This document shows, in pieces, positions 1 to 56,643 of a stretch of 64,000 nt of DNA. Made by a program: the position numbers and the translations under genes. Source of the stretch: Mobula hypostoma (Eukaryota); contig NC_086097.1 of the NCBI RefSeq assembly GCF_963921235.1, positions 102,550,001 through 102,614,000 of the forward strand. Direction: 5' to 3'. Numbering within the stretch: the stretch's first letter is position 1; each line of letters starts with the position of its first letter. The notes under the pieces are model-generated. The model did no database searches. It was given only the letters and a program-made list of their open reading frames with translations, and was not told the origin of the DNA.

Positions 1-19
1 TGAAGCCAATATGTAGCAG

Positions 20-4964: not shown

Positions 4965-5722
4965 TTGGATAGTTATGAGAATATGCAGTATATGGACAGA
5001 TAGGTTCACATGCAGGCAGAAGGCATTAGGTAGCTTAGCACAGTGATGTGGCCTAAAGTGCATCCTGTACTGTTCTGGTCTCCAGTATGACTCTTTACGC
5101 AGTGATGCAGCCAGGAGCTTGGCAATGTACATATCGAGCTAAGTGCTACCATTGCAGAGTCACAGGAACCTCTGTGGTGTTTCCACTCTGAAACACAAGA
5201 TTTTGTTCATTTGACAATGATCATTTCATTGTTATGTTTTGACTTTTTATTGTTTGAATGGTAAGCAAAGATCTCAGTCAAAAATGGTACACAAATGTAA
5301 TCTTTTTAATAGTCTATTTTCATGTCCCAAAAATGGGCATTGCACTTGTTTCTGAATTTCTGTTATGTGTAGTCAAGCCACCAAAACCTGTGGTATTTTG
5401 TAATGTATTTTGAGTATTGCAAATAAGAGCTGAGACAAATATAAAAATGATGACAAGTAAACTGAAGAATACAAGTAGCAGAATTGCATGCTTCAATAGA
5501 ATCTTTGGCTAGAGGTTAAATGAGAGCAATATAAAATTTAATGGAAGTATTCAAAGTTGAAGGGAGGAGAAACATTTAGTGGCAAGGATATAGATGATCA
5601 AGGTTCATAAAATTTAAGTAATTGGTAAAATTAGAGGAAATTGTTTTTGCCTTATGATCTGAAAGGCTGGGTAGGTAGAAGCAGTTTCAGTTGCATCTTC
5701 TAAAGTGGTGTTGAATAAATAC

Positions 5723-5855
5723 CTGACGAAGGGTCTCGGCCCGAAACGTCAACTGTACCTCTTCCTAGAGATGCTGCCTGGCCTGCTGCGTTCACGAGCA
5801 ACTCTTATGTGTGTTGCTTGAAATTCCAGCATCTGCAGATTTCCTCGTGTTTGCA
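5723..5855 (+). mobile_element. Short PLE terminal-repeat insertion beginning at the hammerhead core (CTGACGAAGGGTCTCGGCCCGAAACGTC)
   Basis: Exact 12-bp TSD TTGAATAAATAC at 5711-5722 and 5856-5867. Sequence is shared with other PLE ends in the window. Confidence 0.85.
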
Positions 5856-6035
5856 TTGAATAAATACTTGAGCAGTTACACGCTGTAGGGATTGGATTAT
5901 GGGATTAATTGAGCAGCTTTATCAAGGATCTGAATGTGGATCAGCAGCCACATGCTGTTGTTCTGTGACTGATTATGATGTTTGACACATGACCATATTT
6001 TAACACTAGGCTTGTATCTTTTTTTTTCTTTACAG

Positions 6036-6114
6036 AGACTGTGCAATAGATCTTACTTGTGTACTATGCATGGACTGTTTCCAAAACAGTGTTCACCGAA
6101 ATCATCGGTACAAG
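6036..6114 (+). CDS. UBR1: UBR1 E3 ligase internal exon (~human exon 3), UBR-box zinc finger: (R)[26 protein letters not shown]
   Basis: Polypyrimidine tract + tacAG acceptor and AAG|GTATTT donor. 79 nt, phase 2->0. Translation matches the recalled UBR1 UBR box ([27 protein letters not shown]) better than UBR2. Confidence 0.95.
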
Positions 6115-6829
6115 GTATTTGTCCTATCTTTTTTGTTTTATTGTTTTTATACTTGAACGATAGCTGTTTCTAGAAAATTTTTAGCAGTTCTTTTTAGTTA
6201 GTGGAAGTATTTGAATGGGGATTGGGCGGTAGAAATCATCATGTAGGTTTTGTGCATAAGGTTGATTTTGCATTGCTAGCTATACTAGCATTGTTTCAGG
6301 CCTTGTAATGTTGCTAGTTTCAGAATATAGACTTTGTTTCTTGTTGTTCTGTCCTAATCAGAAAGCTGTGTAATTGGAGAGCAACTTGGTGATTTGATAT
6401 CACTTTCCTTCTGGGTGGTAAAGGGTAAGGGCTGGGCATTGCAGACGAAGACTTGCAGGAATTTTCAGTGGCATGTCTGAGTAGTTTCATATATACTTGG
6501 CTTTCTGCCTCTGATCTGTTATTACTGAGAATCATTAGGGAATATTAATAGCAGGCAAACTGCTCCTGACCCGTCCATGACCTGATTTTCTTGTGACAAG
6601 GATAGTACAGGAAGGAAAAACCTGTTTAGTATATTATTACAGCAGAGTTTTAGAGACTGAGCATGCTGTCCTTTGGATTGGACAAATGACAAAAATCAAT
6701 TTCTTTGTTTTGTGATGAGTTGCATGTTGAATCTGTGCCACACTTGAAAGATTGTAATGTATTATTGGACTGGTGACATGTCAGGAACACTCAGTTTTCT
6801 ACTGCCAGGTAGACTGAGGTGATGTTGAT

Positions 6830-7460
6830 ATTGAGGAAGATCATCTTGGGTTACATAATATTATTGGTCAGTTGATAAATTGGGTAGAGCATCGGCAGAT
6901 GAAATCCAATCTGATATATTTTGAGAAACCAAATAAGAGTAGGGTTAACAGTAATTTGTAGGCTTCTAGAGAGTTGAACAGAGGAACATTGTACAAGTCA
7001 AAGGACCCCTAAACATGGCAACAGTTAGTGGTGAAGAGGGCATACGGGCTAATAGACATCATTGGCCAGTGTGGAGAATATCAAGGTCATGGTAAACTTC
7101 ATAAAACTTCAGTTAGGCTTCATTTGGAGTACTGTGTGCAATTCTGCTTGCTGCATGGTAGAAAGGATGCAGTTGCTCAGAAGAAGATTATAGAAGTGAT
7201 TTTCCAGTCTGTTGCCTGGGCTGGATTATTTTATCTATGAGGAGAGATTGGATAGGTTGGTTTTGTTTTCATTGGAGCAGAGGAGTGGAAAGGCACCTGA
7301 ATGAGGTAAACAAAAATCTGAATGGCGAAAATGAGAAAAAATTTCTTACCATCTCTCCAAATGCAGGTATCTGGAAATAGAGGGCATTGGTGTAAGGTGA
7401 AGAATTAAAAGGGATCTTAAGTCCCACCTTTTATCTCAATGTAGTTAATGATCTTCAGTT
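6830..7460 (+). mobile_element. Degenerate CR1-like LINE 3' fragment
   Basis: ORF 7028-7240 contains the CR1 motif LHKTSVRLHLEYCVQF. Boundaries approximate. Confidence 0.7.
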
Positions 7461-8054: not shown

Positions 8055-8714
8055 CAGACATCCCACCTCTCCTGGAAGTTCCGGGAGTCTCCTGCATATT
8101 AATAGTGGCTCCCTGATGCCCGCAAATTATATACAATATCCCGGAAATCAATTTTTTTGAGAGTAAGCGAGAGAGTGCGAGAGCATGAGAGAGAGCGACC
8201 ACGAGAGAGGGAGCGTGAGAGAGAGAGAGAGCGCGCGCGTGCCATGGCAGTGTGTTCCAAAAAAATATAAAACGTATGTCACCCCAGACTACCCTAAAGT
8301 GTACCCCTGCCTAATAGGGGTCAAAAATAGTGACAGTGTTGCTCGCTGCACTGTTGGCAACAGTGACTATTCTATCTCCCATGGTGGGTTAAGACTGTTA
8401 AAGACATGTTGAGGTGAGTTGAGTAGGTGTCATTCGTTCATTAGCTTAGCTAATGTTATTTAAACTAAACACGAGGAAATCTGCAGATGCTAGAATTTCA
8501 AACATCACACATAAAAATTGCTGGATAGATGCTGCCTGGCCTGCTGCATTCACCAGCAACTTTTATGTGTGTTGCTTGTTATTTAAACTAGCTGGCTAGC
8601 TGCTAAAGAGCTACTCTATTGCAGACATCCCACCTCTCCGGGAAGTTCCGGGAGTCTCCCGCAAATTGATGGTGCTACCTCCCTGAAATGAGTTTTTGCG
8701 GGGTGGAATGTCTG
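8055..8714 (+). mobile_element. Non-autonomous DNA transposon with a BED-finger-like transposase remnant (hAT-like?)
   Basis: TIRs CAGACATCCCACC / GGTGGAATGTCTG and TSD TAACCA (8049-8054, 8715-8720). Peptide ARCTVGNSDYSISHGG. The left terminus is duplicated internally at ~8622. Confidence 0.75.
8468..8576. mobile_element. Inverted-structure PLE terminal-repeat insertion nested in the DNA transposon
   Basis: 14-bp TSD TGTTATTTAAACTA at 8454-8467 and 8577-8590. Head-to-head arms of the PLE terminal repeat. Confidence 0.8.
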
Positions 8715-11914: not shown

Positions 11915-12217
11915 TTATTTGTCACATGTACATTGAAGCATAGTGAAATGCATCATTTGCATCAGATCGGCAAGGGTTATGCTGGGTAGCTCGCAAATAT
12001 CGCCATACTTCCGGTGCCAACGTAGCATGACCACAACTTAATGATGCTAATTGAACGTCTTTTGCAATGTGGGAGGAAACCAGAGCACCAGGAGGAAATC
12101 CACAGTCACGGAGAACGTACAAACTTCTTACAGGCAATGCCATTGGGAATTAAACCCCAGCTGGTGAAAGCTGGTGCTGTAAGGTGATGTGCTAATCACT
12201 ATGCTACCATGTTGCCC
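11915..12217 (-). mobile_element. tRNA-derived V-SINE (HE1-like)
   Basis: Minus strand has a tRNA-like head (GGTAGCATAGTGATTAGCAC...GGTTTAATTCCC) followed by the V-domain GTTTGTACGTTCTCCGTG..GTGCTCTGGTTTCCTCCCACA. Boundaries approximate. Confidence 0.75.
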
Positions 12218-12340
12218 TTATCATCAACAATGGAAAACTCTGGAAACCAGTTAGCAGTTCAACAGCATTTTAATGCAATGTTAATGTTTTGGATGAAAGA
12301 CCCTTCATTTGAACTAGGACAGAAGTGTGTTTTAAGATGC

Positions 12341-14130
12341 CTCAACTCAGTTTAATCTCCCGGATTCAATTCTTTCCTACCTACATCCATGACTCTTCAC
12401 GCACTCTTGATCTTAATGATTTCAAGTTTGTTGCCCCGATCGTCTTATTTTCACTATGGATGTCCAGTCCCTACACACCTCTATCTCCCATCAAGAATGC
12501 CTGAAAGCTCTCTGCTTTCAGGACACCAGAACCAAGCAGTTCCCCTCAACCACCACTCTCCTCCATCTGGTGGAACTCTCAATAATTTCTCCTTCATCTC
12601 CTCTCATTTCCTTCATACATAGTGGTGTAGCCATTTTGCATGGTTCCCAGCTATGCCTGCCGTTTTGTTGGCTCTGTGGAACAGTCCATGTTCCAGGCCG
12701 ACACTGGTATCACTCCCTAACTGTTCCTATGCTGCCTTGACAACTGCATTGGTGCTGCTTCCTGCACCCATGCTGAGCTCGTCAACATCATCAACTTTGC
12801 CTCCAACTTGCTCCCTGCCTTCAAATTTACCTGGTCCATTTCCCTCCTCTTTCTTGATCTCTCTGTCTCTATTTCTGGAGGTGTCTTATCTACTAGTATC
12901 TTTTTTAAACCCACTGATTGTCACAGCTTTTGGACTATACCTGTTCCTACCTTGCTACTTGCAAAGATACCATACCCATTCTCTCAATTCCTGTGCGCCA
13001 TCTCGTCTGCTCTCAGGACGAGGCTTTTCATTCCAGAACTCATGAGATGTCCTCCTTCAAAGAAAGAGGCTTTCCTTGCTCCAACATCAACTCTGCCTTC
13101 ATCCACATCTCTTCCATTTCGTGCACGTCTGTCCTCACCCCCATCCACCTGCCACCCCACCAGGAATAGGGTTCCATTTGTCCTCACCAACCACCCATCA
13201 GCCTCGGCATCCAGTACATAATTCTCCGTTACTTCCGCTGTCTCCAGTGGGACCCCACCACCAAGCACGTTTCCCTCCTGCCCTACTTTCCGCAGAGACT
13301 GCTCCCTACATATCTCCCTTGTCCATTCGTTCCTCCCCATTGATCACCCTTTAGGCACCTGTCCTTGCAAGTGGAACAAGTGTCACACTTGTCCCTACAC
13401 CACCTCCCTCATTACCATTCAGAGCCCCAAACCTTCCTTCTAGGTGAGGTGATGCTTCACCTGTGAGTCTGTTGAGGGCATCATCTGTATCCGGTGATCC
13501 TGTTATGGCCTCCTGCGTTTCAGTGAGACCCGATGTAGAGTGGGAGACCGCTTCACAGAGCACCTATGCTCCATCTGCCAGAAAAAGTGGCATCTCCTAG
13601 TACCCTCCTGTGCTGTCATGATGAGACCACACTCAGGTGGGAGGAACAACATCTTGTATTCTGTCTGGATAGCCTCCAACGTGATGGCATAGGCATGTCT
13701 CAAACTCTAGTAATTCTCTCTCTTCCCCACCCCCCTCACCATTCCCCATTCCTATTTTTCTCTCCTCTCACATTATCTCCTTACCTGACCACCTCTGGTA
13801 CTCTGATCCCTTCTCTTTCTTCCATAGCCTTCTGTCCTCTCCTATCAGACTTCCCCCTTCACCAACCCTGTATCTCTTTTCACCAATCGACTTCCCCCCC
13901 TCTCCTGGTTTCACCTATTGCTTACTACCTTGTACTACTTTCTCTCCTCCTCCACCCACCCCCACCTTCTTACTGACTTCTCATCTTTTTTTCTCTGGTC
14001 CTGCTGATGTCTCTGCCCAAAATGTCGACTGTATGATTTTCCATAGATGCTGCCTGGTCTTCTGAGTTCCTTCTGCATTTTGTATATGTTGTTTGGATTT
14101 CCAGCATCTGCAGATTGTCTCTTGTTTGTA
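12341..14130 (+). mobile_element. 5'-truncated Penelope-like retroelement (RT + GIY-YIG remnants), pseudogenised
   Basis: MDVQSLHTSISHQECLKAL, FKFTWSIS..FLDLSVSISG..LST..F.KPTD and CSQDEAFH motifs. GIY-YIG-type region at ~13440-13570. Decayed hammerhead at ~13996-14031. TSD TTTAAGATGC at 12331-12340 / 14131-14140. Confidence 0.88.
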
Positions 14131-14608
14131 TTTAAGATGCTGAGAAGGTAGGACAAAGGATAGATAAATAGGACAAGGGTTAGATAGAACAAATGGAATA
14201 GTTATGATGTGGTGAAGCTGGGATTGCCATGGGGGTAAGTTAAAGAGATCATCTGGCCAGTAGTTAAGGGGACAGTAAGAGGGAGACTATGAACAAAAGC
14301 TATGAAATTGGCGAGTAAGAATACACAGAAAGATAAAAATTGCAAAATACTAACCTATTGGACGTGCACAGCAGATTAGGATATGATAATGGAGAGAAAT
14401 ACTTAAGTAGAAGTGGCCAGAGAAACAGAAAATAAGTTACTTGAATTTGATGGTAACTTGATAGCACTCCTAGGATCTATTACCAGCTCACTAATACCTG
14501 AGTTTAAATAGCAATTAAGCAATCAAGCACACGAGCATTAATAGAAGGAACATACATCAAAGTTGCTGGTGAACGCAGCAGGCCAAGCAGCATCTATAGG
14601 AAGAGGTG

Positions 14609-14646
14609 CAGTCGACGTTTCAGGCCGAGACCCTTCGTCAGGACTA
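14609..14646 (-). ncRNA. Minimal type I hammerhead ribozyme motif in a Penelope-like terminal repeat (intact core)
   Basis: Minus strand reads UAGUC-CUGACGA-A-GGGU(CUCG)GCCU-GAAA-C-GUC^GACUG. It has CUGANGA and GAAA cores, stem I UAGUC/GACUG, a 4-bp stem II, a GUC cleavage triplet and palindromic ACGU in place of stem III. Confidence 0.75.
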
Positions 14647-14760
14647 ACTGAAGGAAGAGTGAGTAAGGGATATGAAAGTTGGAGGGGGAGAGGGAGATCC
14701 AAAATGATAGGAGAAGACAGGAGGGGGAGGGATAGAGCCGAGAGCTGGACAGGTGATAGG

Positions 14761-15618
14761 TGTGACGAGAATACACATAAAATTAAGATGTTTGCTGGCC
14801 TGGGTTAGCATCAGTGACATCAACAAGTGGTCTGCCACCTGCCCTCAGGGGAAGGAGAGATAAGGAACAATGGAGCAGCGTCTGGAGATGTGTAATGAAG
14901 GAACGGGGGAGAGAGAGCTGTCTGGAGCGGCTCCCCCTTTGAACCCTGAACTGTTTGAAGTGGTGGACAGGCGATGCCCCAGCAGGGGGATAAAAAGGGA
15001 CAGGTTCGCTAAGGCAGGACACACGCCACCCGAGGTAACGAGACCCTGGAAGCGGTGCGCCTCTCACGAGTGGGTGAGAAGTACCAGACAACGACCAGGG
15101 TGGAAAGGTACGATCAGCGGGAACCCAGTGTGTGTCCGCCCTTGCCTGGGTGCCGGGTTCACTGCAGAGGATCGACTGCATCTGGAGGAGGGGTCACAGT
15201 CGGTGACCTCAGGTGACATCACCAAGGACCCGCCCAAAATTGCTTGTGAGCAATCTCGCCGGTCTGTGAGTGAAGCCGTTCTGAATGATCAGTTGTTCCT
15301 GTTCTATCTCTCTCTTCCCCCACGTTGTCCATCGCCATGGCAACGATTACTGCGAACTGAACTACTAACTGGACTGAACTTTGAGTCACTTTTAAATTTG
15401 GTCATTTACCCCTAGACAACGATAGAGCTTGATTGATGCTGTTAATCTTAATTCTGTGCACATGTGTGCTTATCATCGCTGAACTGTTGCATTTATTACC
15501 CTTTCGATTACTGTGTTGCTTGTTTCTTTAATAAAACTTTCTTAGTTCTAGTACTCCAGACTCCAACTGAGTGATCCATTTCTGCTGGTTTGGCAACCTA
15601 GTTACGGGGTACGTAACA
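14761..15618 (+). mobile_element. Solo LTR (Gypsy-like), 858 bp
   Basis: TGTGACG ... CGTAACA termini, 4-bp TSD TAGG/TAAG, AATAAA at ~15530. Confidence 0.8.
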
Positions 15619-17304
15619 TAAGCAAAAGGGGATACGAGAGGATCATGGGACAGGAGGTCCGGGAAGAAAGACGAGGGGGGGGTGACCCAGAGGATGGGCA
15701 AGAGGTATATTCAGAGGGACAGAGGGAGAAAAAGGAGAGAAAGAATGTGTGCATAAAAATGAGTAACAGATGGGGTACGAGGGGGAGGAGAAGGATGTTC
15801 ATTGATGTCCGCCTGACTGTTCTGCCATTCAGTAAGGCTATGGATGACATTTTATCTCGGCACCACTTTCCTTCAGCAACCACCAATTCCTGATTTCAAT
15901 ATCTTAATGTATTGATCTGTCTTCAATATACTTGATGACCAAGCGTCCATTCACGGGTAGAAAGTGCTAAAGATTCACCACTGTCTGGATTAAGACATAT
16001 TCTATCATTAGACTTGAATGACTATGTTGAGACAGTTTTCTGATTCTAGACACCCCTAGCATCTTGCCTGTCAAGCCCTATTTGATTATTTCATTGAGCT
16101 CACCCCGTTCTCTTAAACACTATAGAATTTACAGGATGTTTAATTTCTCCCCGGAATCAATTCAATGAATATTGATGACACTCTGTTGCAAATGTATTCA
16201 TGCTTTGGTGGGGAGATTGTAGCACTACATAATGTCTCATAAGAGTCTGATACAATTGGAGTCAGATATCCCTATTCATGTATTCTTGTCCTTTGACAGT
16301 AAAAGCCAAAATATCATTGGTCTTTCTAATTGCTGCATGGTAATTTTCAGTGATTCAAGTATAAGGGTACTCTGAACCCTCAGTACACCTTTCAAACTTT
16401 CAGTATTTAAATACACATTACACTTTTTTCTCTCAAAGCGAATGACATCATACTTTGCATTATTTATTATTTTGCATGTTCTGAGCCCACACATTTAACC
16501 TATCCATATCTCCCAAAAGTCTCTGCATCCTCAGTCCATACAGCTGTAGTTTGGTATCAGCAGCAAAACTAGGAATTCTTAAGTTCAAGTTTGATTGTCA
16601 TTCAACTGTACAGGTAAATAAAGCCAAATGAAGCTGTGTTCCTCAGGGGCCAAGGTGGAAATCACAGAAGCACAGTAACACACAGTACATATAGAACATG
16701 TAATTATGAAAGCAGTAAAGCATAGTTACAAAAAATAGTCCAAATCCTTGTGTGTCAAGGCCTGTAGATTGGTGTATGGATATTGTCATGGAGCTATGTT
16801 TCTGCAAACACAAGCCTGCAGCAGTTGCCATCACATACTCATGCAGACACAAACACAACCCAGCTTGTCTTCTACCAACTGAACACTGGAGGGGCCAACC
16901 CCAACGCAGTACAGAATTCAGTCAGCTCTGGCGTCTCCTTATCCTGCGGTTGCAATAGGTGACCCCAAGGCAAAAAAGGCCTGTTCTGCGTCACAACCAA
17001 GGCTACATTGTTCCCCTGCCGTCAGCGACGCTAATGAAGCAGTGAATCAGACTTGGAACATTCTACATTACCAATGTCCGACAGTGTCTTGTGATCTCAA
17101 TAAAAACATCCAAGGCAATCATTCCATTTGTTGGGTCACTCAGTGCATCTGAAGTCCCTAGGTGGCTGAAACAGGCTACAACGTGGTTCAGCTACCTTGC
17201 TGTTGAGCAACTCAATAGACTTACACTACTTGGTGTTCTTGTGATTGGTCTTTTTTTTTTAAAAAAAGACCAGGGATGATCAATTGCAGCTTTAGAGAGG
17301 CTGC

Positions 17305-20161
17305 TGTAACTTCACATTTATGCGAGAAACTTATTTCTACCAACGTCTCCGTATATGTGTCCAAAACTCAGTTATGCGAGGAGCACCGCTTTCCCGCCAA
17401 TACAAGTCACGTGCGCGCCCCTCACAATCTCACTCCCGCCACTCTTGCATTGGTTTTGGCAAGGTGTGGATGCGTGATCTTGCGCTCTTAAACTTTTGTT
17501 GGTTTTACCTACGGTGCAGTGATTTGTGCTTGAAACATTTAACTATGCCTCCTCAGCGTCTGATGTCATGTCCTGGGCCATCAGCCGTGCGGCAGAGAAC
17601 CGCTTTAACACTTGAAAAAAAGTTGGAAATTATAAACAGCACAGCATCAGCTGAAGGTAACACAGCTCTGGGTCGCTACTGCCGGGAGCAGAATCTTGCC
17701 TTTAAAGTTATTTTGTTGCTTGACAGTGCACCAGCCCATCCTAAACATTTGGACAGCATTCATCCTAACGTAACAGTGCGTTTCCTGCCGCCTAACACGA
17801 CATCGCTGATTCAACCACTCGACCAAGGTGTGATCCACATTCAAGGCGTTTTTTTTTACGGAGAACTATCTCTCAGATGCTGCAAGCAACAGATGATTTT
17901 GAAAATCCCAGGAGTTTACCAATGGCGTGGGAATGGTGGAAGTTGGAACACTTGGCACAAATGGCGATGGACGTGGACCCAAGTTTAGAATGGAGTCAGC
18001 ATTTCAGTCGTTCCCTGCTGTCAACCCTTCTTCCCTACAAGCAAATTTATGCTGGAAAACAAAATGCTGCCAAAGAAACAACCCTTACCACTTTCTTCAA
18101 GTCGGTGTCATCTCCTGCTGCTGGCAGATCTAAGAGTTCTGTGGGTCTTCTCTCATCCCTTGCTGTGCTTGATATGATCCTGACGACAGTAACCATCCAC
18201 CTTATCTGTGTAAAGCTGCCCGACACCACAACAACCACTCATCTCCCGGAGCGAACACACCTGCCACTGTTGATGAGTACTATACACCCTAGGATGTTAA
18301 CTTTCTATGATTTATTACATTGAATATTACTGTAAATTGATGAAATATAATACAAATGTTGCCTTGTGGTACTGCTTTTGTGTCGTATTGGTGTGAAAAT
18401 GAATAAATTACAGATACAGGTTTCCCCGCTATCCGAAGGTAGAGCGTTCCTATGAAATGGTTCGTAAACCGAATATCGTAAAGCGAAGAAGCAATTACCA
18501 TTTATTTATATGGGAAAAATTTGTGAGTGTTCACAGGCCCAAAAATGACCTACCAAATCATGCCAAATAACACATAAAACCTAAAATAACAGTAACATAT
18601 AGTAAAAGCAGGAATTGTATAATAAATACACAGCCTATATAAAGTAGAAATACTTTTCCACAATCATTGCCGGCACTGTTCGCCGTAGCGAAAATCTCAC
18701 GCAAGCGCTGTCGGCAAAAGCGCACTTTCCAGTAACCTTTAAGCTATGAAGCTGCCAAATCATACCAAATAACACGTAAAAATACACAGCCGATATAAAG
18801 TAGAAATAATGTATGTACAGTGTAGTATCACTTACGGGAATCGGGAAGACAGCGAGCATACTCATGATGGTGTGCTAGGCTGAGTCGTCGAAGGTTGGGG
18901 TGGTGCAGTGGCCCCCACCCTCCGGGCAGCGAACCGATCCCGATCCACGAAGCACGCAAGAGTACAGCGGTGGCCGGGATGCACCCAGCACATCTTTAAG
19001 AAAACAGCCGAAATAAACAAGCTAATTAATTAGGTGCCGCCGGCACGTAATTGTCAGCCCAGATCAGAGGCGATTGCCAATTGTGTCGCCTCTGATCTGG
19101 GCTGACAATTACATGCTGGGCGGCACCTAATTAATTAGCATGTTTATTTCGGCTTTTTTCTTAAAGATGTGCTGTGTACCTCCCGGCTACCGCTGCATTC
19201 TCTGCGAATCGGTATCTGTCTGCGGCCCGGAGGTTGTGGTGTTGGGACACTGGGGTGTCGTCTGTTTCCATTAGGGCAGGCGGGTCATCTTCTATGACTG
19301 CCTGCCTCTGTCGAAGGTTGAGGTTTGTTGTCTGCTGTGGCTGATGTGGAAGGCTTGAAAAACGACAGTATGCTTGACTGCTGAGCCTCGCGCATTTTTC
19401 TATCATACAGGTCTTCGTAAGCAATCAAAGCATCTTGCAAGTATCCCCTAAACCGACATACCCTTTCAAAATTAAAGTCGTACTTTATCATTGCAGCGAA
19501 AATCTCACGCAGTTGCTTCATGTTCAGTTCCTGGACAACTTCACTTTCACTACTGCATTCGGTTTGGATTGTTATCCTTTCCTCTTCCAATTGCAACAGC
19601 TCTTTATCTATCAGTTCTTGGTCATGGGATACCAAAACCTCTTCAACATCATCTTCATCAACTTGCACAACCCAAACTCACTTTGTCCTTACTTCGTTCA
19701 CCACGATCAAAAAGCTTAATTATGTCTAGTTTTACTTTAAGTGCAACACCCTTACGAGCTCTTTCAGGCTTTTCCAAAACCTTAGAACTCATTTTGCAAA
19801 CGGATGCTCACAGGCACGTGTTTAAGCAATGCCGGCAAGAATGCAGTTCTGAATCCGGGAGAGAATGGCTGCTCGGGCCGTGTGCTGACTTTTTTTTTCG
19901 TGCGCTGCTTTTTCTGCGCGCTGCCTTTTTTCGTAACAATGAAAACACCTGTTAGCGAAAACGGGTAACTAATGTAGGTCTTCGTAACAATGAGGTTTCA
20001 TAAAGCGAATGTTCAAAAAGCAGGGGACACCTGTAAAACCTATTTAGGAAGCCCGCTGGAACGCAGCCCTATTTTCTCCATTTAAGTAATTACTCACATT
20101 ATGCGATTTCATATTATGCGTCGACTGCGAGGAACGTATCCCCCGAGGATAGGGTGTACTG
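17305..20161 (+). mobile_element. Internally deleted Tigger/pogo element, copy 1 (left TIR eroded), host of a nested Tigger
   Basis: LTLEKKLEII HTH start fused to LLLDSAPAHP..FLPPNTTSLIQPLDQGVI DDE motifs. Right end GATAGGGTGTACTG. Homologous to 37834-39140. Confidence 0.85.
18417..20033 (-). mobile_element. Nested Tigger-type non-autonomous transposon with a long internal palindrome
   Basis: TA|CAGGTTTCCCC ... GGGGACACCTG|TA. The empty site is visible in the second copy at ~37940. Transposase C-terminal remnant VDEDDVEEVL..HDQEL (ORF 19285-19668). Confidence 0.88.

Positions 20162-32448: not shown

Positions 32449-32475
<27 letters not shown>
32449..32475. repeat. (TG)n microsatellite
   Basis: Directly visible. 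Confidence 0.95.
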
Positions 32476-32479
<4 letters not shown>

Positions 32480-41240: not shown

Positions 41241-42613
41241 GGAGCGCTTTATCCAATCATAGAGAAGTACGACATAGAAACAGGCCCTTTGGCCCATCTA
41301 GACTATGCCAAAGCCATTTAAACTGCTCACTCCCAACAATCTGCACCAAGACCATAACTCTCCATATGCCTATTATTTATGTACCTATCCAGATTTTTCT
41401 TATACATTGAAATCGAGCTCACATGGGCCACTTGTGGCAGCTCAGTCCACGCTCTCATGACTCTGAGTGAAGAAGTTTCCACTCATATTCCCCTTAACCT
41501 TTTCACCTTTTAGCCTTAACCCATGATCTCTGGTTGTAGTCCCACAAAACCCCAGTGGAAAAAAGCCTGCTAATATTTACCCTATATGTGCCCCTCATAA
41601 TTTTGTATCGCTCTATCAAATCTCTCAATCTTCTACATTCTGAAGAATACAGTCCTAACCTATTCAATCTTTCCTTATAACTCAGGTCCTCCGGTCCTGG
41701 CAGCATCCATGTAAAATTTCTCTGCACTCTTTCAAAGTTGTTTACATCTTTCCTGTAGGTAGGTGACCAAAACTGCACACAGTACTCCAAATTAGGCCTC
41801 ACCAATGTCTTATGCAACTTCATAATATCCCATTTTCTGTTTGCAATACATTGATTATTGAGGACCAGTGTGCCAAAAGCTTTCTTTATGACCCATCTAC
41901 CACTTCCAACAAATTATGTACCTGTATTCCCAGATCCCTTTGTTCTACCACATTCCTCAGTGCCCTGCCGTTCACTGTGTTCCTGGTTGGTCCTGCTGAA
42001 GTGCAAAACCTCACACTGGTCTACATTAAATTCCACCTGCCATTTCTCAGCCCATTTTTCCAGCCTTCCTCACTGTCCACTGCTCCCCCACTCTTGGTGT
42101 CATCTGCAAATTTGCTGATCTAGTTAACCACGTTATCATCCAGATGATTGATATAGGTGACAAACAACAAAGAGCCCAGCACCAATCCCTGTGGTACACC
42201 ACTAATTGGAGGCCTCCAGACAGAGGGGCAACTCTCTACGACCACTCTGTGGCTTCTCCCACAAAGCCACTGTCTAATCCAATTTACTACCTCATCCTGA
42301 ATGCCATGCGACTGAACTTCCTTGATCAGCCTCCTATGCGGGACATTGTCAAATGCCTTACTAAAGTCCAGGTAGACAACACCCACTGCCTTGTCTTCAT
42401 GCACTTTCCTGGTAACTTGCTTGGGGGAAAAAAAAACCTAAGATTGGTTAAACATGACCTACCATACACAAAACCATGCTGCTATCCTTAGTCAGTCCAT
42501 GTCTATCTAAATACTTGTGTATTCAGTCCTTAGAATACCTTACAATAACTTTCCCACTACTGATGTCAGATCACTGGCCTATAATTTTATGGTTTCTGTT
42601 TAGAGCCTTTTTC

Positions 42614-43018
42614 TTTTTTTTTTAAATTTTATTTTTATTTGGATAAGGAGTTCACAATTATTATGTACTTTTTTCACACATATAACCTTTTCCATTTTTT
42701 TATATGTATAAAACCACAATTATTTATACATTCTTAAGTACACATTGAGATGATATAAAAGCAAAATAAACATTTAAATAGATAATTATGTACTGTGGTA
42801 AATCTAACCTATTAGGCTAAGTAATGAAATTAGTTGTTAAGAAAAATGGTAATAATAGTTTCCATACAACCCTTCTGGACCATTTCCACTGGTCCAAAAT
42901 GTTGCATACAAGCCTATATACCAACCATTGTAGGTGTTTATATCCCAATTTGTTCGTGCTTGTTCCTGCCCGCAGACATAATTATCCAATCCCTATGTAC
43001 TTATTTACTTAATTTTTC
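42614..43018 (-). mobile_element. 5'-truncated L1 3'UTR copy, same family as the element at 58259-64000
   Basis: Nearly identical to 58262-58668 (a few substitutions). Poly-T tail. Candidate TSD/microhomology TTTTTC. Confidence 0.9.
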
Positions 43019-45232: not shown

Positions 45233-45860
45233 TCATAGTCATAGTCATACTTTATTGATCCTGGGGGAAATTGGTTTTCATTACAGTTGCACCATAAATA
45301 ATTAAATAGTAATATGTAAATTATGCCAGGAAATAAGTCCAGGACCAGCCTATTGGCTCAGGGTGTCTGACCCTCCAAGGCAGGAGTTGTAAAGTTTGGT
45401 GGCCACAGGCAGGAATGACTTGCTATGACGCTCAGTATTGCATCTCGGTGGAATGAGTCTCTGGCTGAATGTACTCCTGTGCCCAACCAGTCCATTATGT
45501 AGTGGATGGGAGACATTGTCCAAGATAGCATGCAACTTGGACAGCATCCTCTTTTCAGGCACCACCGTGAGAGAGTCCAGTTCCATCCCCACAACACCAC
45601 TGGCCTTATGAATGAGTTTGTTGATTCTGATGGTGTCTGCTACCCTCAGCCTGCTGCCCCAGCACACAACAGCAAACATGATTGCACTGGCCACCACATA
45701 CTCATAGAACATCATCAGCATCATCTGGCAGATGTTAAAGGACCTCAGTCTCCTCAGGAAATAGAGACGGCTCTGACCCTTCTTGTAGACAGCCTCAGTG
45801 TTCTTTGACCAGTCCAGTTTATTGTCAATTCGTATCCCCAGGTATTTGTAATCCTCCACC
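45233..45860 (-). mobile_element. Rex1/Babar-like LINE 3' fragment, copy C
   Basis: ORF 45350-45862 homologous to copy B, with (ATGACT)n tail. Confidence 0.88.
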
Positions 45861-47505
45861 ATGCTGACTTTGACTTGTTATATCATTAGTCTCCAAGTAC
45901 CTTGAAACCTCATCCTTAATAATAAACTCCAACACTTTCCCAACCACTGAGATTAGGCTAACTGGCCTATAATTTCCTTTCTTTTGTCTTCCTCCCTTCT
46001 TAAAGAGTGGAGTGACATTTGCAATTTTCCAGTCCTCTGGGAGCATGCCAGAATCAAATGATTCTTGAAAAATCATGACCAATGCATCCATTATCTCTTT
46101 AGCAACCTCTCTCAGGACTCTGGGATGTAATCAGTCTGGTCCAGGTGACTTGTCCACCAGAAAACCTTTGAGTTTGCCTTTCATGCTTTCCTTTGTAATA
46201 GCAATGGCACTCACTCCTGCTCCCTGACACTCACGGACCTCTGGAACACTGCTAGTGTCTTCCACAGTGAAGACTGATTAAGTTAATCTTTTTCCCCCAT
46301 TACTACCTCACCAGCATCATTTTACAGGGGTCCAGTATCAACTTTCACCTCCCTTTTACTCTCTATAGAACTGAAAATACTGTTAGTATCCTGCTTTGTA
46401 TTAGTGGCTAGTTTGCCCTCATATTTCATCTTTTCCCTTGTAGCTTTTTTAGTTGCTTTTTGTTGAATTTTAAAAGCTTCCCAATTATCCATCTTCCCAC
46501 TCACCTTTGCTACCTTATATGGCCTTTCTTTGGCTTTTATGCAGTCTTATGCAGTACCCTTGTCAATCACGGTTGCCAACCCTGTCATTTGAGAACAACT
46601 ATTTCTGTGGGACATATCTGTTTTGCACCTTGTTAACTATTCCCAGAAACTTCAGCCACCTCTGCTCTGCCGTCATCCCCACCAGTATGCTCCTCCAATC
46701 CACCTGGGCAAGCTTCTCTCTTATGCCTCTGTAACTCCCTTTATCCCATTGCGATACTGATACATGTGAGTTATGCTTCTCCTTCTCAAACTGCAGTATG
46801 AATTCAATCATATGATCACTGTCTCCCAAGGGATCCTTTATGCTAAGCTCCCTAAAAGGATCTGGGTTATTACACGACATCCAATCTAAGATGGCCTTGC
46901 TCCAAGTGGCTCTAAAAAGCCATCTAATCGGCTTTCCTTCGCTTATGATCTGACACCGACCTGATTTTCCCTATCTCCTTGCATAATGAAGTCCCCATTA
47001 CAATTGTGACATTACCCTTATTACATGCGTTTTCCAGCTCCCTTTGCAATCTCAATTCTACATGGTGGCTGTTATTTGGAGGCCTATATATGATTTCCCA
47101 CAAAGGATATTTTTACCCTTGCAGTTTCTAAACTCCACCCACAAAGATTCAACAATCTCTGGCCCTATGTCACCTTTCTAAAGATGTAATTCCATCTCTT
47201 ACTAACAGAGCCACACCACTGCCTGTCCTTTCGATACAAAGTATAATCTCTGGTGTTAAGCTCTCAACAATGGCCTTCTTTCAGCTAGGACTCAGTGATG
47301 CCCACGACATACAGTCCAATCTGTAATTGCTCCACGAGTTTGTCCACCTTATTCTGAATGCTATTTGCGTTTATATACAGCACCTTCAGTCCTGCATTCT
47401 TCACCTTTTTGAATTTTGTCTCCATGGTACAATTTAACTCTTTGCTCTGTTTGTTTGCATTGTACCCAGTCATTGGCTTGTTCTTCCTTGCATTCATGTT
47501 ACACC

Positions 47506-49578: not shown

Positions 49579-51819
49579 CAGTCGGCCCTCCTTATCCACG
49601 GATTCAACCAACCGTGGATCGAAAATATTTGAAAAAAAATTCCAGCAAGTTCCAAAAAGCAAAACTTGAATTTGCCGTGCGCCAAGCACTACGCTTAATC
49701 CACGTGAATGAAGTGATGTGTAGGCATGCCCTGCTGTAGCCTCCCGCCATTTCACAGATCCTCAGTCTCTCTCCAGCACTCATTGTTTGAGCATTGTTGG
49801 CCTTGCTACTTGTGTTGTGTGCCCCCTTTGTTTCTGTGAAAGAATGGCTCTTAAAAAGCAATTAAGTGGTCAAAGCAATTCCTCTGAGGCCAAGAGAGAG
49901 TGTAAAGTGCTATCTCTCGCTAAGAAAATAAAAATCTTAGATCTTTTGAAAAGTGGCATGTCACTCGCCGAAGTGGGCCGTAAAGTCGGTAAGAATGAAT
50001 CGAGCATTCGCACAATAAAGCAGAAAGAAGGTGAAATTCATGGAAGTGTTAGTGCTACCCCTACAATGGCAAAAATGGTCTCTCTGGTTCGTGATAAAGT
50101 GCTTGCGAAGACTGAGAAAGCATTAGGTATGTGGCTGGAGGACATGTCACAGAAGCATATCCCTGTTGATGGCAAAATTATGCGTAAAAAAGCATTTAGC
50201 CTCTATGAGCACCACTGTGAGGGGGTTGAGGAGAGCGAGAGGAAGGAGTTTCTAAGGGTAGTAAGGGATGGCTGGCTAGCTATGTAAAGTGCTACAGCCT
50301 CAAGAACTTAAAGATCACGGGAGAATCGGCATCGACTGATGCTGAGGCAGCATCAGCGTTCCCAGAAGAGCTCAAGAAACTCATAGAAGAGAAAGGCTAC
50401 CTTTCAGAGCAGGTCTTCAATTGTGATGAAACAGGCTTGTTCTGGAAGAAGATGCCCAATTGTACCTACATCCATAAGAGTGCCAAGCAGGTCCTGGGGT
50501 TCAAGGCCTGGAAAGATCGTCTTACTCTGGTGCTGTGTGGCAGTGCAGCCAGTCACATGATCAAGCCAGGACTCGTCTACCGAGCAAACAATCCCCGGGC
50601 CCTTAAGAACAAAAACAAAAATTGCCTACCTGTGTTCTGGCAACACAACAAGAATGCTTGGGTGACAGCGATCTTGTTCTTGGTATGGTTCCACCAGTGC
50701 TTCATTCCTGAAGTGAAGAAATACTTCGAAGAGAAGGGGCTGCCATTCAAGGTCCTCATAATTGACAATGCTCCTGGCCATCCCCAATCTCTCTGCTTTG
50801 CTGAGGATAACGTGGAAGTGATGTTCCTGCCTCCTAACACTACGTCACTGCTGCAGCCACTTGATCAAGGCATCATCAAGTGCATTAAGGCGACTTGCAC
50901 CCTCCTCACCTTCGGGGGGATTTGGGCTGTCCTTGATGCTAACCCTGACTGCAGCATCGTGGATTTATGAAAGAGCTTCAGAATTGCAGATGCAATTGTG
51001 CTTATTGCAGAGGCTGTAGACACCCTAAAGCCTGAAACAGTCAATATATGTTGGAAGCTATTATGGAGTGAGGTAGTCAATGATTTCAGGGGCTTCCCCA
51101 CTATTGATGTAGAAGTCAGGAATATCTTGAATGTTGGAAGAGAAGTTGGTGGGGAAGGCTTCTCTGACATCGAGGACGATGTCAAGGAACACATAGAAGA
51201 GCATAGAGAAAACCTTACCGACGAGGAACTCGAAGATCTGCTGAAATCCTCTACGGATGATGATGCAGAAGATTTAGCGGACGCAGAGTCATCAATTTGG
51301 ACTCTTGAAAAATTTGCAGCAGTTTTTCAACAGGTGCAAGTGTTAAAGGATATGATCCTTGAGTACGGTCTTTTGATGGAACAAAGCCTCCGTGTCACCC
51401 GAGGGATAACAACATGCCTACAACCACTGCAAGATTTGTTTGATGATGCAAAGAAAAAAGAAAAAACAGCTTCCTATAACAGTGTTTCTAACTAAAGCAT
51501 CTGTAACTATGAAGCCTCGACCTTCAACGCTTGAAGATCCTCATCCCTCAACCTCCACAGATCCTGACATTAGTATTATTGAGCCTCTTCCAATACGTCA
51601 TTGTTCCCTAAACAATACAGTATAATGACTATTTACATAGCACTTACATTGTATTAGGTATTATAAGTAATCTAGAGATGATTTAAAGTATGCGGGAGGA
51701 TGTACGTAGGTTATATGCAAATACTACGCCATTTTATATAAGGGACCTGAGCATCCGCGGATTTTCGTGTCCGTGGTGGGTCCTGGAACCAATCCCCCAC
51801 GGGTACCGAGGGACGACTG
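49579..51819 (+). mobile_element. Full-length Tigger/pogo transposon with a disrupted transposase (~49844-51600)
   Basis: TA|CAGTCGGCCCTC ... GAGGGACGACTG|TA. CENP-B-type HTH, FNCDETGLFWK, DNAPGHP and LQPLDQG motifs. Frameshift at ~50255, TGA at 50968, frameshift at ~51460. Confidence 0.93.
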
Positions 51820-52372
51820 TACCTGGAAAACTCAGGTCAGGCAGCATCTGTGGAAAGAGAAATAGTTTATTGGGTCCAATAATGTAACTGAGGAAGTCTG
51901 ATGAGGAGTCTTTGGACTGAAATATTAGTTGTTTCCCTTTTCAGAAATGCAATCTGATATGCTTAGATTGTCCAGCATTTTCTATTTTTATCTCTGGATT
52001 AAGACTTCTGAACTGACCCTTGTGACACACTTTATATAGTCTCTATCCTTGCCTTCCTTGTCTGCATGAAATTTTTGTCATACTTTTCAAGTCTCCTTTA
52101 CTCAAAATATGAAGTATCTACCATGATAGATTTCTGCATACTTGTGTAAAATAATGCACATAAGCACAAACATTAGCCAGCAGCTTAAGAAGTATTACCT
52201 TGAGAGAGATCTGATCACTTAATCTGGAATAAGCTGTTTGTAGTATTAGTAAAATAGCAAATAATTGTGTACTGCAATTTGCTTCTATATTGAGTCATGT
52301 GTACTTATTGTTTTTTTTGTTTCATTGCAATATAGATCTTTTCAGTTTGGCAGTTTTGTGTTTCTTCTCTAG

Positions 52373-53271: not shown

Positions 53272-53375
53272 GCAAGTACAAAACTTTGGCTGAATCTTTT
53301 TTTAAAAGAAAGGTGTTGCAATAATTATGGGTAATTTTAATCTTTACATAAGTTGGCATGTATGTATTCAGTGTA

Positions 53376-53576
53376 ACACACACAAAATGCTGAAAGAACT
53401 CAGCAGGCCAAAGAGCATCTGTGGAAAAAAGTACAGCTGACGAGTCCTGCTGAAGGATTTTGGCCCGAAGCGTCAACAGTACATTTTTCCACAGATGCTG
53501 CCTGGCCTGCTGAGTTCCTCCAGCATTTTGTCTGTGTTGCTCGGATTTCCAGCGTCTGCAGGTTTTCTCTTGTTTG
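53376..53576. mobile_element. Inverted PLE terminal-repeat unit with decayed hammerhead, ~105 nt downstream of exon 8
   Basis: 13-bp TSD TGTATTCAGTGTA (53363-53375 / 53577-53589) and long inverted arms. Confidence 0.85.
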
Positions 53577-53859
53577 TGTATTCAGTGTAGATTTTTATTA
53601 GAATATGCTGTTCAATCAACTAGACAACAGAATACTTTAAATCAGCTCATCTGCAATTAAACAGGGTGGTTAATTAATGATCTTACAGAAAAATGGGAAT
53701 GCTTAAAAACCAACAAAGAATACCTAACAAAGGAGTTCCTAACCTGGGGTCCACGGACGCCTCAGTTAATGGTAGGGGTTCATGACGTGAAAAAGATTGA
53801 GAACCCCTGGTCTAACAGAAAGTAGAGTGTGAAAGTAGATTATCAGGATAACCTAGAAA

Positions 53860-55310
53860 ATAGAACATAGAAAATCTACAGCACATTACAGGCCCTTTGT
53901 CCCACAACGTTGTGCCAACCATGTAACCTACTCCAGAAGCTGCCTAGAATTTCCCTACTACATAATCCTCTATTTTTCTAAGCTCCATGTACCTATCTAA
54001 GAATCTCTTAAAAGACACTATTTTTTCCGCCTCTACCTTCACTAGCAGTGCATTCCACACAACCCACCATTCTGTGGGCACGTGGCCAAGTGGTTAAGGC
54101 ACTGGACTAGCGACCTGAAGGTCGTGAGTTCAAGCCCCAGCCGAGGCAACGTGTTGTGTCCTTGAGCAAGGCACTTAACTACACATTGCTCTGCGACGAC
54201 ACTGGTGCCAAGCTGTATGGGTCCTAATGCCCTTCCCTTGAACAACATTGGTGTTGTGGAAAGGGGAGACTTGCAGCATGGGCAACTGCTGGTCTTCCAT
54301 ACAACCTTGCCCAGGCCTGCGCCCTGGAGAGTGAAGACTTTCCAGGTGCAGATCCATGGTCTCGCAAGACTAACGGATGCCTTTTATACCACTCTGTGGA
54401 AAAACTTACCTCAGACATACCCCCCGTACCTACTTCCAAGCACCTTAAAACTATGCCCCCTTTTGTTAGCCATTTCAGCCCTGGAAAAAAAGCCTCTGGC
54501 TATCTATACGATCAATGCCTCTCATCATCTTAAGCACCTCTATCAGGTCACCTCTCATCCTTCATCACTCCAAGGAGAAAAGGCCAAGTTCAGTCAACCT
54601 ATTCTCATAAGGCATGCTTTCCAATCCAGGCAACAGCCTTGTAAAACTCCTCTGCACTCTTTATAGCGTCCACATCCTTCCTGCAATGAAGTGATCAGAA
54701 CTGAACACAGTACTCCAGTAACTAAGGTCTTATATAACTGTAACATTACCTCACGGCTGATGAAAGCCAACACACCATACACCTTCTTAACAACACAGTC
54801 AACCTGCACAGCAGCTTTGAGTGTCCTCTGCACACGGACCCCAAGATCTCGCTGATTCTCCACGCTGCCAAGAGTCTTACCATTATTATTATATTCTGTC
54901 TTCAAATTTGACCTACCAAGGTGAGCCACTTCACACTTATCTGTGTTGAACTCCACCTGCCACTTCTCAGCCCAGTTCTGCATCCTATCAATGTGTCTTC
55001 AACACCTCCAGCTTTTGTATTATCAACAAACTTACAAAGCACCCTTCTACTTCCTTATCCAGGTCATTTATAAAAATCACAAAGAGGAGGGGTCTCAGAA
55101 CAGATCCCTTCAGAACACCACTGATCACCGTCCTCCATGCAGAATACGAACCATCCACAACCATCCTTTGCCTTCTGTGGTCAAGCCAATTCTGGATCCA
55201 CAAAGCAAGGTCTCCGTGGATCCCATGCCTCATTACTTTCTGAGGCTCACATTGGGAACCTTATCAAATGTTTTACTACATCCACTGCTGTACCTTCATC
55301 AATGTGTTTT
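53860..55310 (-). mobile_element. CR1-like LINE 3' portion, interrupted by a SINE
   Basis: [42 protein letters not shown]-type tail. Boundaries approximate. Confidence 0.85.
54078..54387 (+). mobile_element. Young tRNA-derived SINE with Pol III A and B boxes
   Basis: A box TGGCCAAGTGG, B box GAGTTCAAGCC, 12-bp TSD ACCA(T/C)TCTGTGG at 54066-54077 / 54388-54399. Confidence 0.85.
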
Positions 55311-56062
55311 GTTACATCTAGGAGAAAAAAAAACTACCAGCAAGAGTAGATAACAAATGGTAGCTCCATTAAATATTGGACGCTTTGAGAGCAAGACTGA
55401 ATAGATAATGGTAGAAAATAAGGAAATGGAGATTTTAAACAAATCCTATGTATCTGTCTTCATGGTGGAAGACTCTTCTTCCCGAATAAAATCAGGGTAA
55501 AAGGGAGGAATAAGAAAATTGGGCAAATTGTTATTAAGAAAGCTATAGGGATTACGGACTGTCAACCTCAGAAGTGGCTGCCACAATGATAGGTGCACTT
55601 GTGATTTTCCAAAGTTTCTTAATTCTGGAAAGATCAAACTGGAATGGAAAATTCCAAGTGTATCTCTTGAATAATGTTGAACCATTGTAAAGAAAGGTCA
55701 GTTTAGAACAAGTACAGAACATATTGGAAATACTGAACAGGCAGTATTTTTTAGAGGAAGAAACAGTTAACATATGATGGTCTTTCATCAGAACTGGGAA
55801 AAATTAGAAGCAATTTTTAAGTAGAGCAGAAGGGGCTAAGAGGTGGATTGGGAATGTGGGAAGAATGAAAGGGTAGGTCTATGATGGTGTGGAGAACTGG
55901 AGAGACAGTAAGTGATATCACAGGCCAGCAGAGCATGGTAAAGGTCCATGTGGAAATTGTGCAAGTATGAGTGCAACCTGAAATAGAAGTGTGGAAATAG
56001 ATGAAATATGATAGAGGGTCCTGTCAACTGTGGTAGAAGGGAAACCAAAATTCATTAAGGAA

Positions 56063-56186
56063 CACACACAAAATGCTGGAGGAACTCAGCAGGCCAGGCA
56101 GCATCTATGGGAAAAAAATACAATTGATATGTTGGGCCAAGTCCATGTGTTGCTTGGATTTCCAGCATCTGCAGATTCTGTTTGCG
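56063..56186. mobile_element. Inverted PLE terminal-repeat unit
   Basis: 12-bp TSD TTCAT(T/G)AAGGAA at 56051-56062 / 56187-56198. Confidence 0.75.
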
Positions 56187-56643
56187 TTCATGAAGGAAGG
56201 TATTTTAGAGGTACCTATGGGAAAGTCTCATATTTGGAGTAGATGGGCAGAAGAACTGAATGACCCCAGTGGAATCATTACAGGAGAAAGATGGGATTGT
56301 CAAATTAGATGTGGGAGAGTAAGCTTGTTTGTAATGGATATTTGATTGAGTGGGTTGGGCTTTTGTTCATCAGATTTGAGAAGAGTCAGACACATCTTAT
56401 TGAAACTTAAGTTTCTAAAAGGACTTAGTTGATATGAAGAGGAAGTTTTCTCCATTCAAGAGGGAATCTGGGACTGGGGCAAAGCTTCAGAATAAGAGAT
56501 CACCCATTTAGGAAAAGAGGATGAGGAGGATTTTCTCCTCTCAAAGGATCTGTGAATCTTTGGAGATTTTTACCATAGATGTGGGGCTGAAGTCGAAGTC
56601 AGATCACTTACCATTTTATTCAGTGGTGGAACATGCTCAAGAG

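Follow-up and report, generated by a model that had tools for sequence, protein, structure and literature searches.

The 64,000 nucleotides (nt) of DNA of the ray Mobula hypostoma presented above (contig NC_086097.1, positions 102,550,001 to 102,614,000 of the forward strand; hereafter the window) have the character of intron-rich animal DNA and carry a Penelope-like element (PLE) family at 13 loci, ranging from about 95 to 1790 nt. The subject of this report is the origin of four of these loci, the short insertions A, B, C and D, which consist of PLE ends and lie between target-site duplications (TSDs) of their own, and their relation to a longer, coding PLE of the same window (Table 1). The census of copies, the tree, and the hammerhead and tandem-repeat tests all refer to this one 64-kb window.

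The Coding Element and Its Terminal Module

The coding copy, delimited by tblastn, alignment and a table of termini, leads from the middle of its reverse transcriptase (RT) domain through a CX4CxxC linker and a GIY-YIG endonuclease domain into a pyrimidine-rich 3′ untranslated region (UTR) and a mutated minimal hammerhead ribozyme motif, the C3 of which lies at 14001, followed by an inner terminus near 14093 and a tail up to 14130. Its reading frame contains numerous stops and frameshifts, and as it spans residues 409–825 of the full-length 889-aa homolog P0016 (tblastn), it is itself 5′-truncated. Positions 12364–13697 were linked by tblastn to the ray proteins P0009, P0001 (E 4e-73) and P0016, and the nearest proteins are those of M. 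hypostoma and Hypanus sabinus, with 42–54% identity. Pfam matches to RVT_1 and GIY-YIG were obtained in all three proteins, those of P0001 and P0009 lying below the Pfam cut-off, and none of the three PLE open reading frame (ORF) pieces of the window matched Pfam by itself; the parent at 12341–14130 has both domains, RT and GIY-YIG, that distinguish endonuclease-bearing (EN+) PLEs.

The core cysteine pair of the GIY-YIG domain (the CCHH motif, scored on its cysteines) is present in P0001 and in 106 of 132 homologous proteins, and is decayed yet legible in the window copy. The linker of the latter reads CKWNKCHTC and is of the CX2-5CxxC type, as found in 105 of the 106 core-bearing homologs. 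Such a linker ahead of the GIY-YIG domain marks the Neptune/Nematis-type clades and is absent from Penelope/Poseidon (Craig et al. 2021, PMC8557442). Judged from its sequence, the parent PLE combines RT and GIY-YIG domains with a linker of the Neptune/Nematis type, from which the clade label is taken. Several host-gene models of rays include read-through PLE sequence (P0002, P0006).

The numbering used within the terminal module counts from C3 of the hammerhead core, CUGANGA, as position +1, which places the predicted cut after +28, the inner terminus at about +93 to +97 and the outer end at about +131. The motif corresponds to the minimal type I hammerhead known from the pseudo-long terminal repeats (pLTRs) of PLEs (Cervera & De la Peña 2014, PMC4209133). 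A one-frame search for an overlap of the module with an ORF start found nothing, and a blastp comparison of all six frames with homologous PLE proteins gave no match. About 15 nt past the hammerhead cut, a pyrimidine run ending in YAG is followed by ATG (14029–14042, and in other copies, e.g., 53484–53497), a stretch with the appearance of a start codon or of a second splice acceptor.

Structure of the Short Insertions

A preliminary description of this DNA had reported four short insertions with TSDs, and all four are present where it placed them, with duplications of 12, 14 and 13 bp that are exact around A, B and C, and one of 12 bp with a single mismatch around D. The coding PLE, said to carry a TSD and the same 3′ terminus, indeed has an exact 10-bp duplication, and its outer 3′ end coincides with that of the short copies to within about 5 nt. 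As a control for chance, 2000 random sites were scored with the same slop of ±6 nt: a score of at least 9, the level of the weakest TSD, was reached at 3 of them, and a score of at least 12 at 1. The duplications are AT-rich (69–86% A+T vs. 59% window-wide), and those of A–D (4/4) vary in length between 12 and 14 bp.

What lies between the TSDs was worked out from a self-comparison of the window and the mapping of the individual arms. The proposal that each insertion is a single unit of nothing but the PLE terminal repeat holds for A, a plain end that runs from +1 (C3 of the hammerhead core) to the outer end, and fails for B, C and D, which are made of two opposed arms. A single TSD pair surrounds both arms in each of these three, and each is therefore the product of one event. 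Copy C folds into a single long DNA hairpin (z = −9.9; 0/200 shuffles equally stable). The four insertions are unequal in length (A, 133 nt; B, 109 nt; C, 201 nt; D, 124 nt) and also differ in start point and subfamily, and are therefore not copies of one unit.

The two ends of a fold-back are distinct. Where both are legible (B, C, D and H), a tail is present on one end and missing from the other (4/4). The outer end is common to A–D and the coding PLE, while the tail-less arm ends (B, C, D, E, H and K; 6/6 in the window) cluster within about 5 nt and, according to the alignment and the table of termini, sit 36–40 nt inside the outer end. An inverted 5′-truncated copy together with a 30–40 bp tail on one end is a known PLE signature (PMC8557442), and rotifer PLEs have an inverted pLTR with a 31-bp tail and a TSD of 8–10 bp (Arkhipova et al. 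2013, PMC3846280). The inverted copy, a frequent and optional feature, is present in three of the four short insertions (B, C and D) and at 7 of the 13 window loci. With PAc (Poseidon of Anolis carolinensis), in vitro work revealed two RT start sites that bound the tail, as well as cleavage of both strands of AT-rich DNA and a hammerhead whose cutting is dispensable (Frangieh et al. 2024, PMC11167929); the two ends of the window fold-backs correspond to these two start sites.

The TSDs of the three fold-backs read T...A and those of the two single-arm inserts, in the orientation of the element, T...C (n = 5), a pattern that may mean that the second nick primes only if the primer ends in A.

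Table 1. Positions of the PLE loci and of their target-site duplications in the window.
Feature	Position	Strand	Description
Left TSD of copy A	5711–5722		right copy 5856–5867; 12 bp, exact
Copy A	5723–5855	+	single 5′-truncated PLE end with tail, 133 nt, subfamily 2
Left TSD of copy B	8454–8467		right copy 8577–8590; 14 bp, exact
Copy B, tailed arm	8468–8524	−	about +73 to outer 3′ end; without hammerhead
Copy B, inverted tail-less arm	8525–8576	+	about +45 to inner terminus
Left TSD of coding PLE	12331–12340		right copy 14131–14140; 10 bp, exact
Coding PLE	12341–14130	+	5′-truncated, decayed EN+ PLE
Left TSD of copy C	53363–53375		right copy 53577–53589; 13 bp, exact
Copy C, inverted tail-less arm	53376–53442	−	+25 to inner terminus
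Copy C, tailed arm	53443–53576	+	−4 to outer end; hammerhead core mutated
Left TSD of copy D	56051–56062		right copy 56187–56198; 12 bp, 1 mismatch
Copy D, inverted tail-less arm	56063–56144	−	+10 to inner terminus
Copy D, tailed arm	56145–56186	+	about +88 to outer end; barely more than the tail
Locus 1	8–931		older head-to-head pair; minus arm about 8–330, tailed plus arm about 321–931
Copy E	14550–15788	−	PLE end of about 380 nt, tail-less, split by a nested element; subfamily 2
Locus F	29198–29976	+	internal PLE fragment without terminal module
Locus G	33918–34075		old fold-back; tailed minus arm 33918–34019, plus arm 34020–34075
Locus H	36180–36402		old fold-back; eroded tailed minus arm, tail-less plus arm from about −10
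Locus I	40612–41260	−	tailed copy of at least 650 nt; 5′ side adjoins another repeat
Locus J	51823–52000		eroded fold-back; plus arm from −4
Locus K	57864–57955	+	tail-less single arm of about 95 nt from near +3

Copies of the Family in the Window

The preliminary description had listed the four insertions and the coding copy, all of which are real, and had left eight further loci of the family unlisted. Of the nine loci other than A–D, K measures about 95 nt, H about 220, E about 380, the internal fragment F about 780, locus 1 about 930 and the coding PLE 1790 nt, while G, J and I have minimum lengths of 155, 160 and 650 nt, respectively. By form, the 13 loci comprise seven head-to-head pairs, five single arms and one internal piece. 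The left end of locus 1 touches the window edge, and the plus arm of G is interrupted by another repeat that begins at 34076. No clear TSD was seen at H, and none was found at K. A weak match near 51200–51310, inside a DNA transposon, was dismissed as chance. Motif scans of metagenome, prokaryote-genome and viral contigs for additional copies with flanks gave 0 matches.

The extent of copy E is based on exact contiguity and on tblastn, by which residues 373–422 of P0001 (a read-through 3′ UTR) match 15789–15646 at 84%; aligned alone, the distal part of E scored 54 vs. a shuffle maximum of 63, i.e., not above shuffles. A 7-bp TSD, AGAAGGA, is possible (14543–14549/15789–15795). Nested in E is an 857-bp element (14762–15618) whose ends read TG..CA and which may have a 4-bp duplication (TAGG/TAAG); it looks like a solo LTR.

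A tree was built from 11 of 15 aligned arms (the tailed arms of B and D and the minus arms of H and G were excluded). Copies A, B and E, which are 89–92% alike, form the sole well-supported clade (100/99), referred to as subfamily 2, and C and D group with the coding copy in a poorly resolved branch order. The label “short with TSD” changes three times on this tree, a number equally low in 320 of 500 label shuffles; at least two changes are forced by the well-supported branch, and none of 200 bootstrap trees has a single change. A clade of short copies apart from the long ones was not recovered among the 11 arms. Within the window, the idea that the short copies are a family of their own is largely contradicted by the sizes of the loci, which extend from about 95 to 1790 nt, and by the presence of short TSD-flanked copies in two subfamilies, each beside longer copies.

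Evidence from Public Contigs

Public contigs of four runs, with three organism labels, were aligned at 80% likeness to positions 12200–14850, a stretch that lies outside A, B, C and D. From one run, 142,365 contigs aligned to these 2.65 kb, which is not a copy number. The statements on ends and joints made here hold among the 24 loose ends listed of 6473 and the 15 joints listed of 962. A loose end at 14083 was present in all four runs (585, 547, 378 and 72 contigs), with a consensus that completes the inner terminus and then becomes AT-rich, and so were loose ends at 14127 and 14129 (588 + 999, 567 + 945, 417 + 729 and 75 + 143 contigs). At both termini, the loose ends continue into mixed AT-rich letters in all four runs. 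A joint of an inverted arm to a direct arm was seen in three of the four runs (8, 10, 7 and 0 contigs). No joint skipping the coding PLE, i.e., an empty site, was among the 15 listed, and one contig of organism C crosses the left junction of this element. Two contigs, one of organism B (1274 nt) and one of organism C (1280 nt), track the window to exactly 14549 and then continue for 825 and 911 unaligned letters, respectively, and a contig of organism A continues into copy E; the departure at 14549 fits an empty site and fixes the edge of E, the far side of which lies outside the stretch compared.

A loose end at 14645 was considered as a 5′ hotspot and rejected, its consensus continuing as the 3′ UTR of other subfamilies. 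Joints from 14114, 14116 and 14129 to 14549 were also seen in three runs (1–12 contigs per joint and run); they connect a tail on the plus strand with the point at which an inverted arm begins. Such a tail-to-tail layout was not observed in the window, and the joints reflect either real nesting or a mapping artefact.

Origin of the Short Insertions

The short insertions A–D are read here, with a probability of about 80%, as 5′-truncated products of target-primed reverse transcription of an abundant EN+ PLE, three of them being fold-backs, and not as a separate family. Extreme 5′ truncation by the PLE enzyme, one of the two origins that the preliminary description had put forward, is supported if complemented by the inverted second arm. 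In the proposed course of events, the GIY-YIG endonuclease would nick both strands of AT-rich DNA 10–14 nt apart and thereby generate the TSD; the TSD is observed, the enzyme is deduced from the shared 3′ end, and the cleavage of both strands is taken from PAc in vitro. One nick would then prime a cDNA at the outer start site, yielding the tailed arm with the common outer end that is observed. In B, C and D, the other nick would prime a second cDNA at the inner site, 36–40 nt upstream, to give the inverted tail-less arm; the geometry is observed and the two start sites come from PAc in vitro, while we infer that the second nick acted as the primer. Because the arms share part of their sequence, two RNAs, or one RNA read twice, would have been copied, which fits the predicted PAc dimer. 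Both cDNAs would stop after 40–135 nt, be connected head to head, with microhomology slight or absent, and then be repaired by a presumed route, the junctions themselves being observed. In A and the coding copy, the second priming would be absent and the cDNA joined directly to the target. The hammerhead would be a passenger in the pLTR, with the template left uncleaved at this motif. For head-to-head junctions, the rotifer study favors self-priming on an antisense template (PMC3846280); the window data are compatible with both this and two-nick priming and do not decide between them.

Several observations weigh against this reading. Of the 19 arms, six have their 5′ start between −10 and +3, where helix I has its upstream edge (A at +1; C, G and J at −4; H at about −10; K at about +3), which is unexpected for random truncation. 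A scan statistic for this clustering gave p = 0.0095 with ends uniform from −100 to +95, 0.0014 with log-uniform lengths, 0.009 with a fitted log-normal and 0.15 under the most cautious null, with ends uniform across the span observed; once the eroded loci G, J and K are omitted, the count is 3/14 (p = 0.45), and the width of the stretch, 13 nt, was picked after inspection of the data. The clustering would agree with a template whose start or splice site lies at this place, as well as with a stalled RT or with biased alignment of old copies. One and the same blunt junction, +25/−4, is present in C (53442/53443) and in G (34019/34020), although the two are 64% alike and have their tails on opposite arms. 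In addition, the loose end at 14083 falls where the reference copy is mutated, so that true ends are mixed with alignment breaks, and run X1 may come from the window’s own source. A TSD was found at only 5 of the 13 loci, a sixth (E) being doubtful; one of the eight inner branches of the arm tree is well supported; and the sample is a single window. For the junction of C and G, a snap-back at helix I was considered and rejected, as it would leave an overlap of 5 nt, whereas 8 additional letters were found.

It is conceivable, if rather doubtful, that the short size is inherent and not random, many of the short cDNAs having been primed at the tail in the 5′ pLTR of a full-length PLE RNA and having run off at its 5′ terminus or at a splice junction on the upstream side of helix I; each fold-back would then arise from a PLE dimer that primes both nicks at the two start sites. 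The six arms that start between −10 and +3, three of them at exactly −4, speak for such a run-off. Of the 5 copies that retain the stretch ahead of helix I, 4 (I, H, locus 1 and E; not the coding copy) have there a pyrimidine tract with CAG or TAG at its end. An intron of D. virilis was reported to end just before helix I (PMC4209133), and PAc primes internally on a pLTR-ORF template (PMC11167929). If run-off were true, genomic 5′ ends would map the start of the PLE or its splice site, and rays would offer tens of thousands of natural products for testing the later steps of PLE insertion. A preferred short size, a weaker reading than a retrozyme-like family, would be compatible with the cluster of 5′ ends.

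The other origin put forward in the preliminary description was a retrozyme-like family, in which a short, perhaps circular RNA released by the hammerhead would be copied in trans by the PLE enzyme. Tandem hammerhead repeats related to PLEs, with dispersed monomers, have been found in vertebrates, one chondrichthyan included (Li, Clavereau & Pollet 2026, bioRxiv 10.64898/2026.07.22.740005), animal retrozymes have TSDs of more than 4 bp (Cervera & de la Peña 2020, PMC7229834), and copy A retains all core letters. Against this, helix I together with an intact core is impossible in A–D: the 5′ strand of helix I is missing from A (0 bp), B contains no hammerhead sequence, D has a partial motif in its inverted arm only and the core of C is mutated, so that a complete type I hammerhead is found in none of the four (0/4). 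Among the ten motifs scored, one keeps the core and a 5-bp helix I, namely that of the longer copy E. Rfam gave three matches at E up to 5, none of them a hammerhead, a search that is little informative for minimal motifs. A loose hammerhead pattern matched the window 9 times vs. 9.1 expected and is therefore not evidence alone, the hammerhead assignment relying on the helix pairing in E; nor is the folding of whole arms as RNA clearly above shuffles (E, z 0.81; A, z −1.91, 11/200). Six arms (A, C direct, C inverted, D inverted, E and the coding copy) read through the cut site, and their templates were therefore uncut, which agrees with the normal insertion of PAc hammerhead mutants (PMC11167929); none of the 19 arms starts at +29, as the product of a cut would. 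No tandem array of this unit was present among 7 Tandem Repeats Finder rows for the window, and no same-strand hammerhead within 400 nt after any of its 9 tails. The arms are colinear with the PLE end, unpermuted, devoid of private sequence and without a common unit length, and three of the four insertions are inverted pairs. A retrozyme-like, ribozyme-processed family is, on these grounds, highly improbable.

The junction shared by C and G could instead point to a non-autonomous fold-back master, resembling a miniature inverted-repeat transposable element (MITE) or a short interspersed nuclear element (SINE), whose short hairpin composite would be transcribed and re-copied whole; non-autonomous PLE derivatives have been reported in Chlamydomonas (PMC8557442), and pLTRs alone sufficed for mobilization in trans in a rotifer (PMC3846280). 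Such a master is nevertheless very unlikely, since the junctions of B, C, D, H and J all differ, the likeness of C and G is low and their tails are opposed, and the 962 contig joints in all (15 listed) hint at many junctions. Shrinkage after insertion, with the middle lost by recombination between direct pLTRs (which would leave a solo pLTR, such as A, within the old TSD) or by deletion at a palindrome center (B, C and D), is very unlikely. Long inverted repeats are unstable, and the TSD by itself is compatible with shrinkage as well as with truncation. Solo pLTRs and microhomology-mediated deletions have moreover been reported for rotifer PLEs (PMC3846280). By inspection, however, the window junctions have 0–2 nt of microhomology, overlap or filler, a 5-nt direct repeat in C and G (helix I) was left unused, and the two fixed termini would stay unexplained, so that shrinkage could only be an addition to truncated reverse transcription from the two start sites.

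Other Features of the Window

A short exon at 6037–6099 (+) resembles a UBR box zinc finger (PF02207, E 6e-4, below the Pfam cut-off), and the region around it probably lies inside a UBR1/UBR2-type gene. A nearly full-length long interspersed nuclear element (LINE) at about 58265–63971 (−) contains RT pieces, an AP endonuclease (PF03372) and a frame resembling ORF1; between its 3′ end and a second copy at 42616–42988 the likeness is 96–98%, and the element is therefore young. A truncated LINE-like element is present in three copies that are 93–97% alike (27335–28061, 34575–35308 and 45235–45874), with an ALKBH8_N match in the copy at 34577. Pieces of Pogo/Tigger-type DNA transposons lie at 17296–18652, 37845–39105 and 49724–51760 (DDE_1, E 1e-28 at 50230–50967). 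An inverted repeat at 18959–19201, with 83-nt arms, is probably a MITE; its center resembles Rfam mir-2329 as a hairpin only, well below the gathering score.

Comparison with Known Systems

The finding adds one more host to a known pattern of PLE insertion and is, as such, of limited importance. Hairpin-shaped, TSD-flanked pieces of PLEs may be misannotated as MITEs, SINEs or retrozymes. No paper on this PLE family in rays was found in a literature search whose scope lay outside most subscription journals, Repbase and Dfam. The origin of inverted pLTRs and the completion of PLE insertion are treated as still open in two papers (PMC11167929, PMC8557442). The value of the present system lies in its scale, i.e., clean TSDs of 10–14 bp and very many copies, and both two-nick priming and run-off could be tested, without bench work, by tabulating termini, junctions and 5′ ends across the genome.

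With canonical EN+ PLEs, the insertions share the head-to-head truncated copy, the 30–40 bp tail on one end and the single TSD, and solo pLTRs also occur there (PMC3846280, PMC8557442). They differ in that their arms measure only 40–135 nt and the insert is the pLTR alone, in that the TSDs are 10–14 bp long vs. 8–10 bp in rotifers (PMC3846280), and in that the host is a cartilaginous fish. With PAc, they have in common two termini around a tail downstream of a minimal hammerhead, AT-rich targets and an uncleaved template (PMC11167929). The window element has the CX2-5CxxC linker, whereas Penelope/Poseidon elements are without it, and a head-to-head joining of two cDNAs is absent from the available text of the PAc paper.

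The minimal type I hammerheads of metazoan PLEs have the same short helix I, the extra base before helix II and a small palindromic helix III region, and occur mostly as single dispersed motifs, with some pairs on opposite strands; such pairs, 100–700 bp apart, were attributed to PLEs that had been truncated (PMC4209133). The available part of that survey makes no mention of sharks and rays, and in the window one motif in ten retains core and helix I.

Animal non-LTR retrozymes are likewise short and non-coding, with a pLTR-related type I hammerhead, and have TSDs of more than 4 bp and a probable insertion by PLE enzymes (PMC7229834; bioRxiv 10.64898/2026.07.22.740005). Theirs are head-to-tail repeats with a complete hammerhead per unit and RNAs of 170–400 nt in linear and circular form, whereas in the window the copies occur singly or head to head, without a hammerhead that could fold and without a unit in common. 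The pLTR origin of animal retrozymes has already been published, with one chondrichthyan genome surveyed (bioRxiv 10.64898/2026.07.22.740005).

A true retrozyme among these copies would still be within the known kind. Twin priming in L1, in which both target nicks prime cDNA, leads to a 5′ inversion inside one TSD. The two systems thus have in common the priming at two nicks, as proposed for the window copies, and the inversion within a single TSD; the pieces of L1 are, however, non-overlapping parts of one RNA, whereas the arms in the window overlap and the second arm starts from a fixed site.

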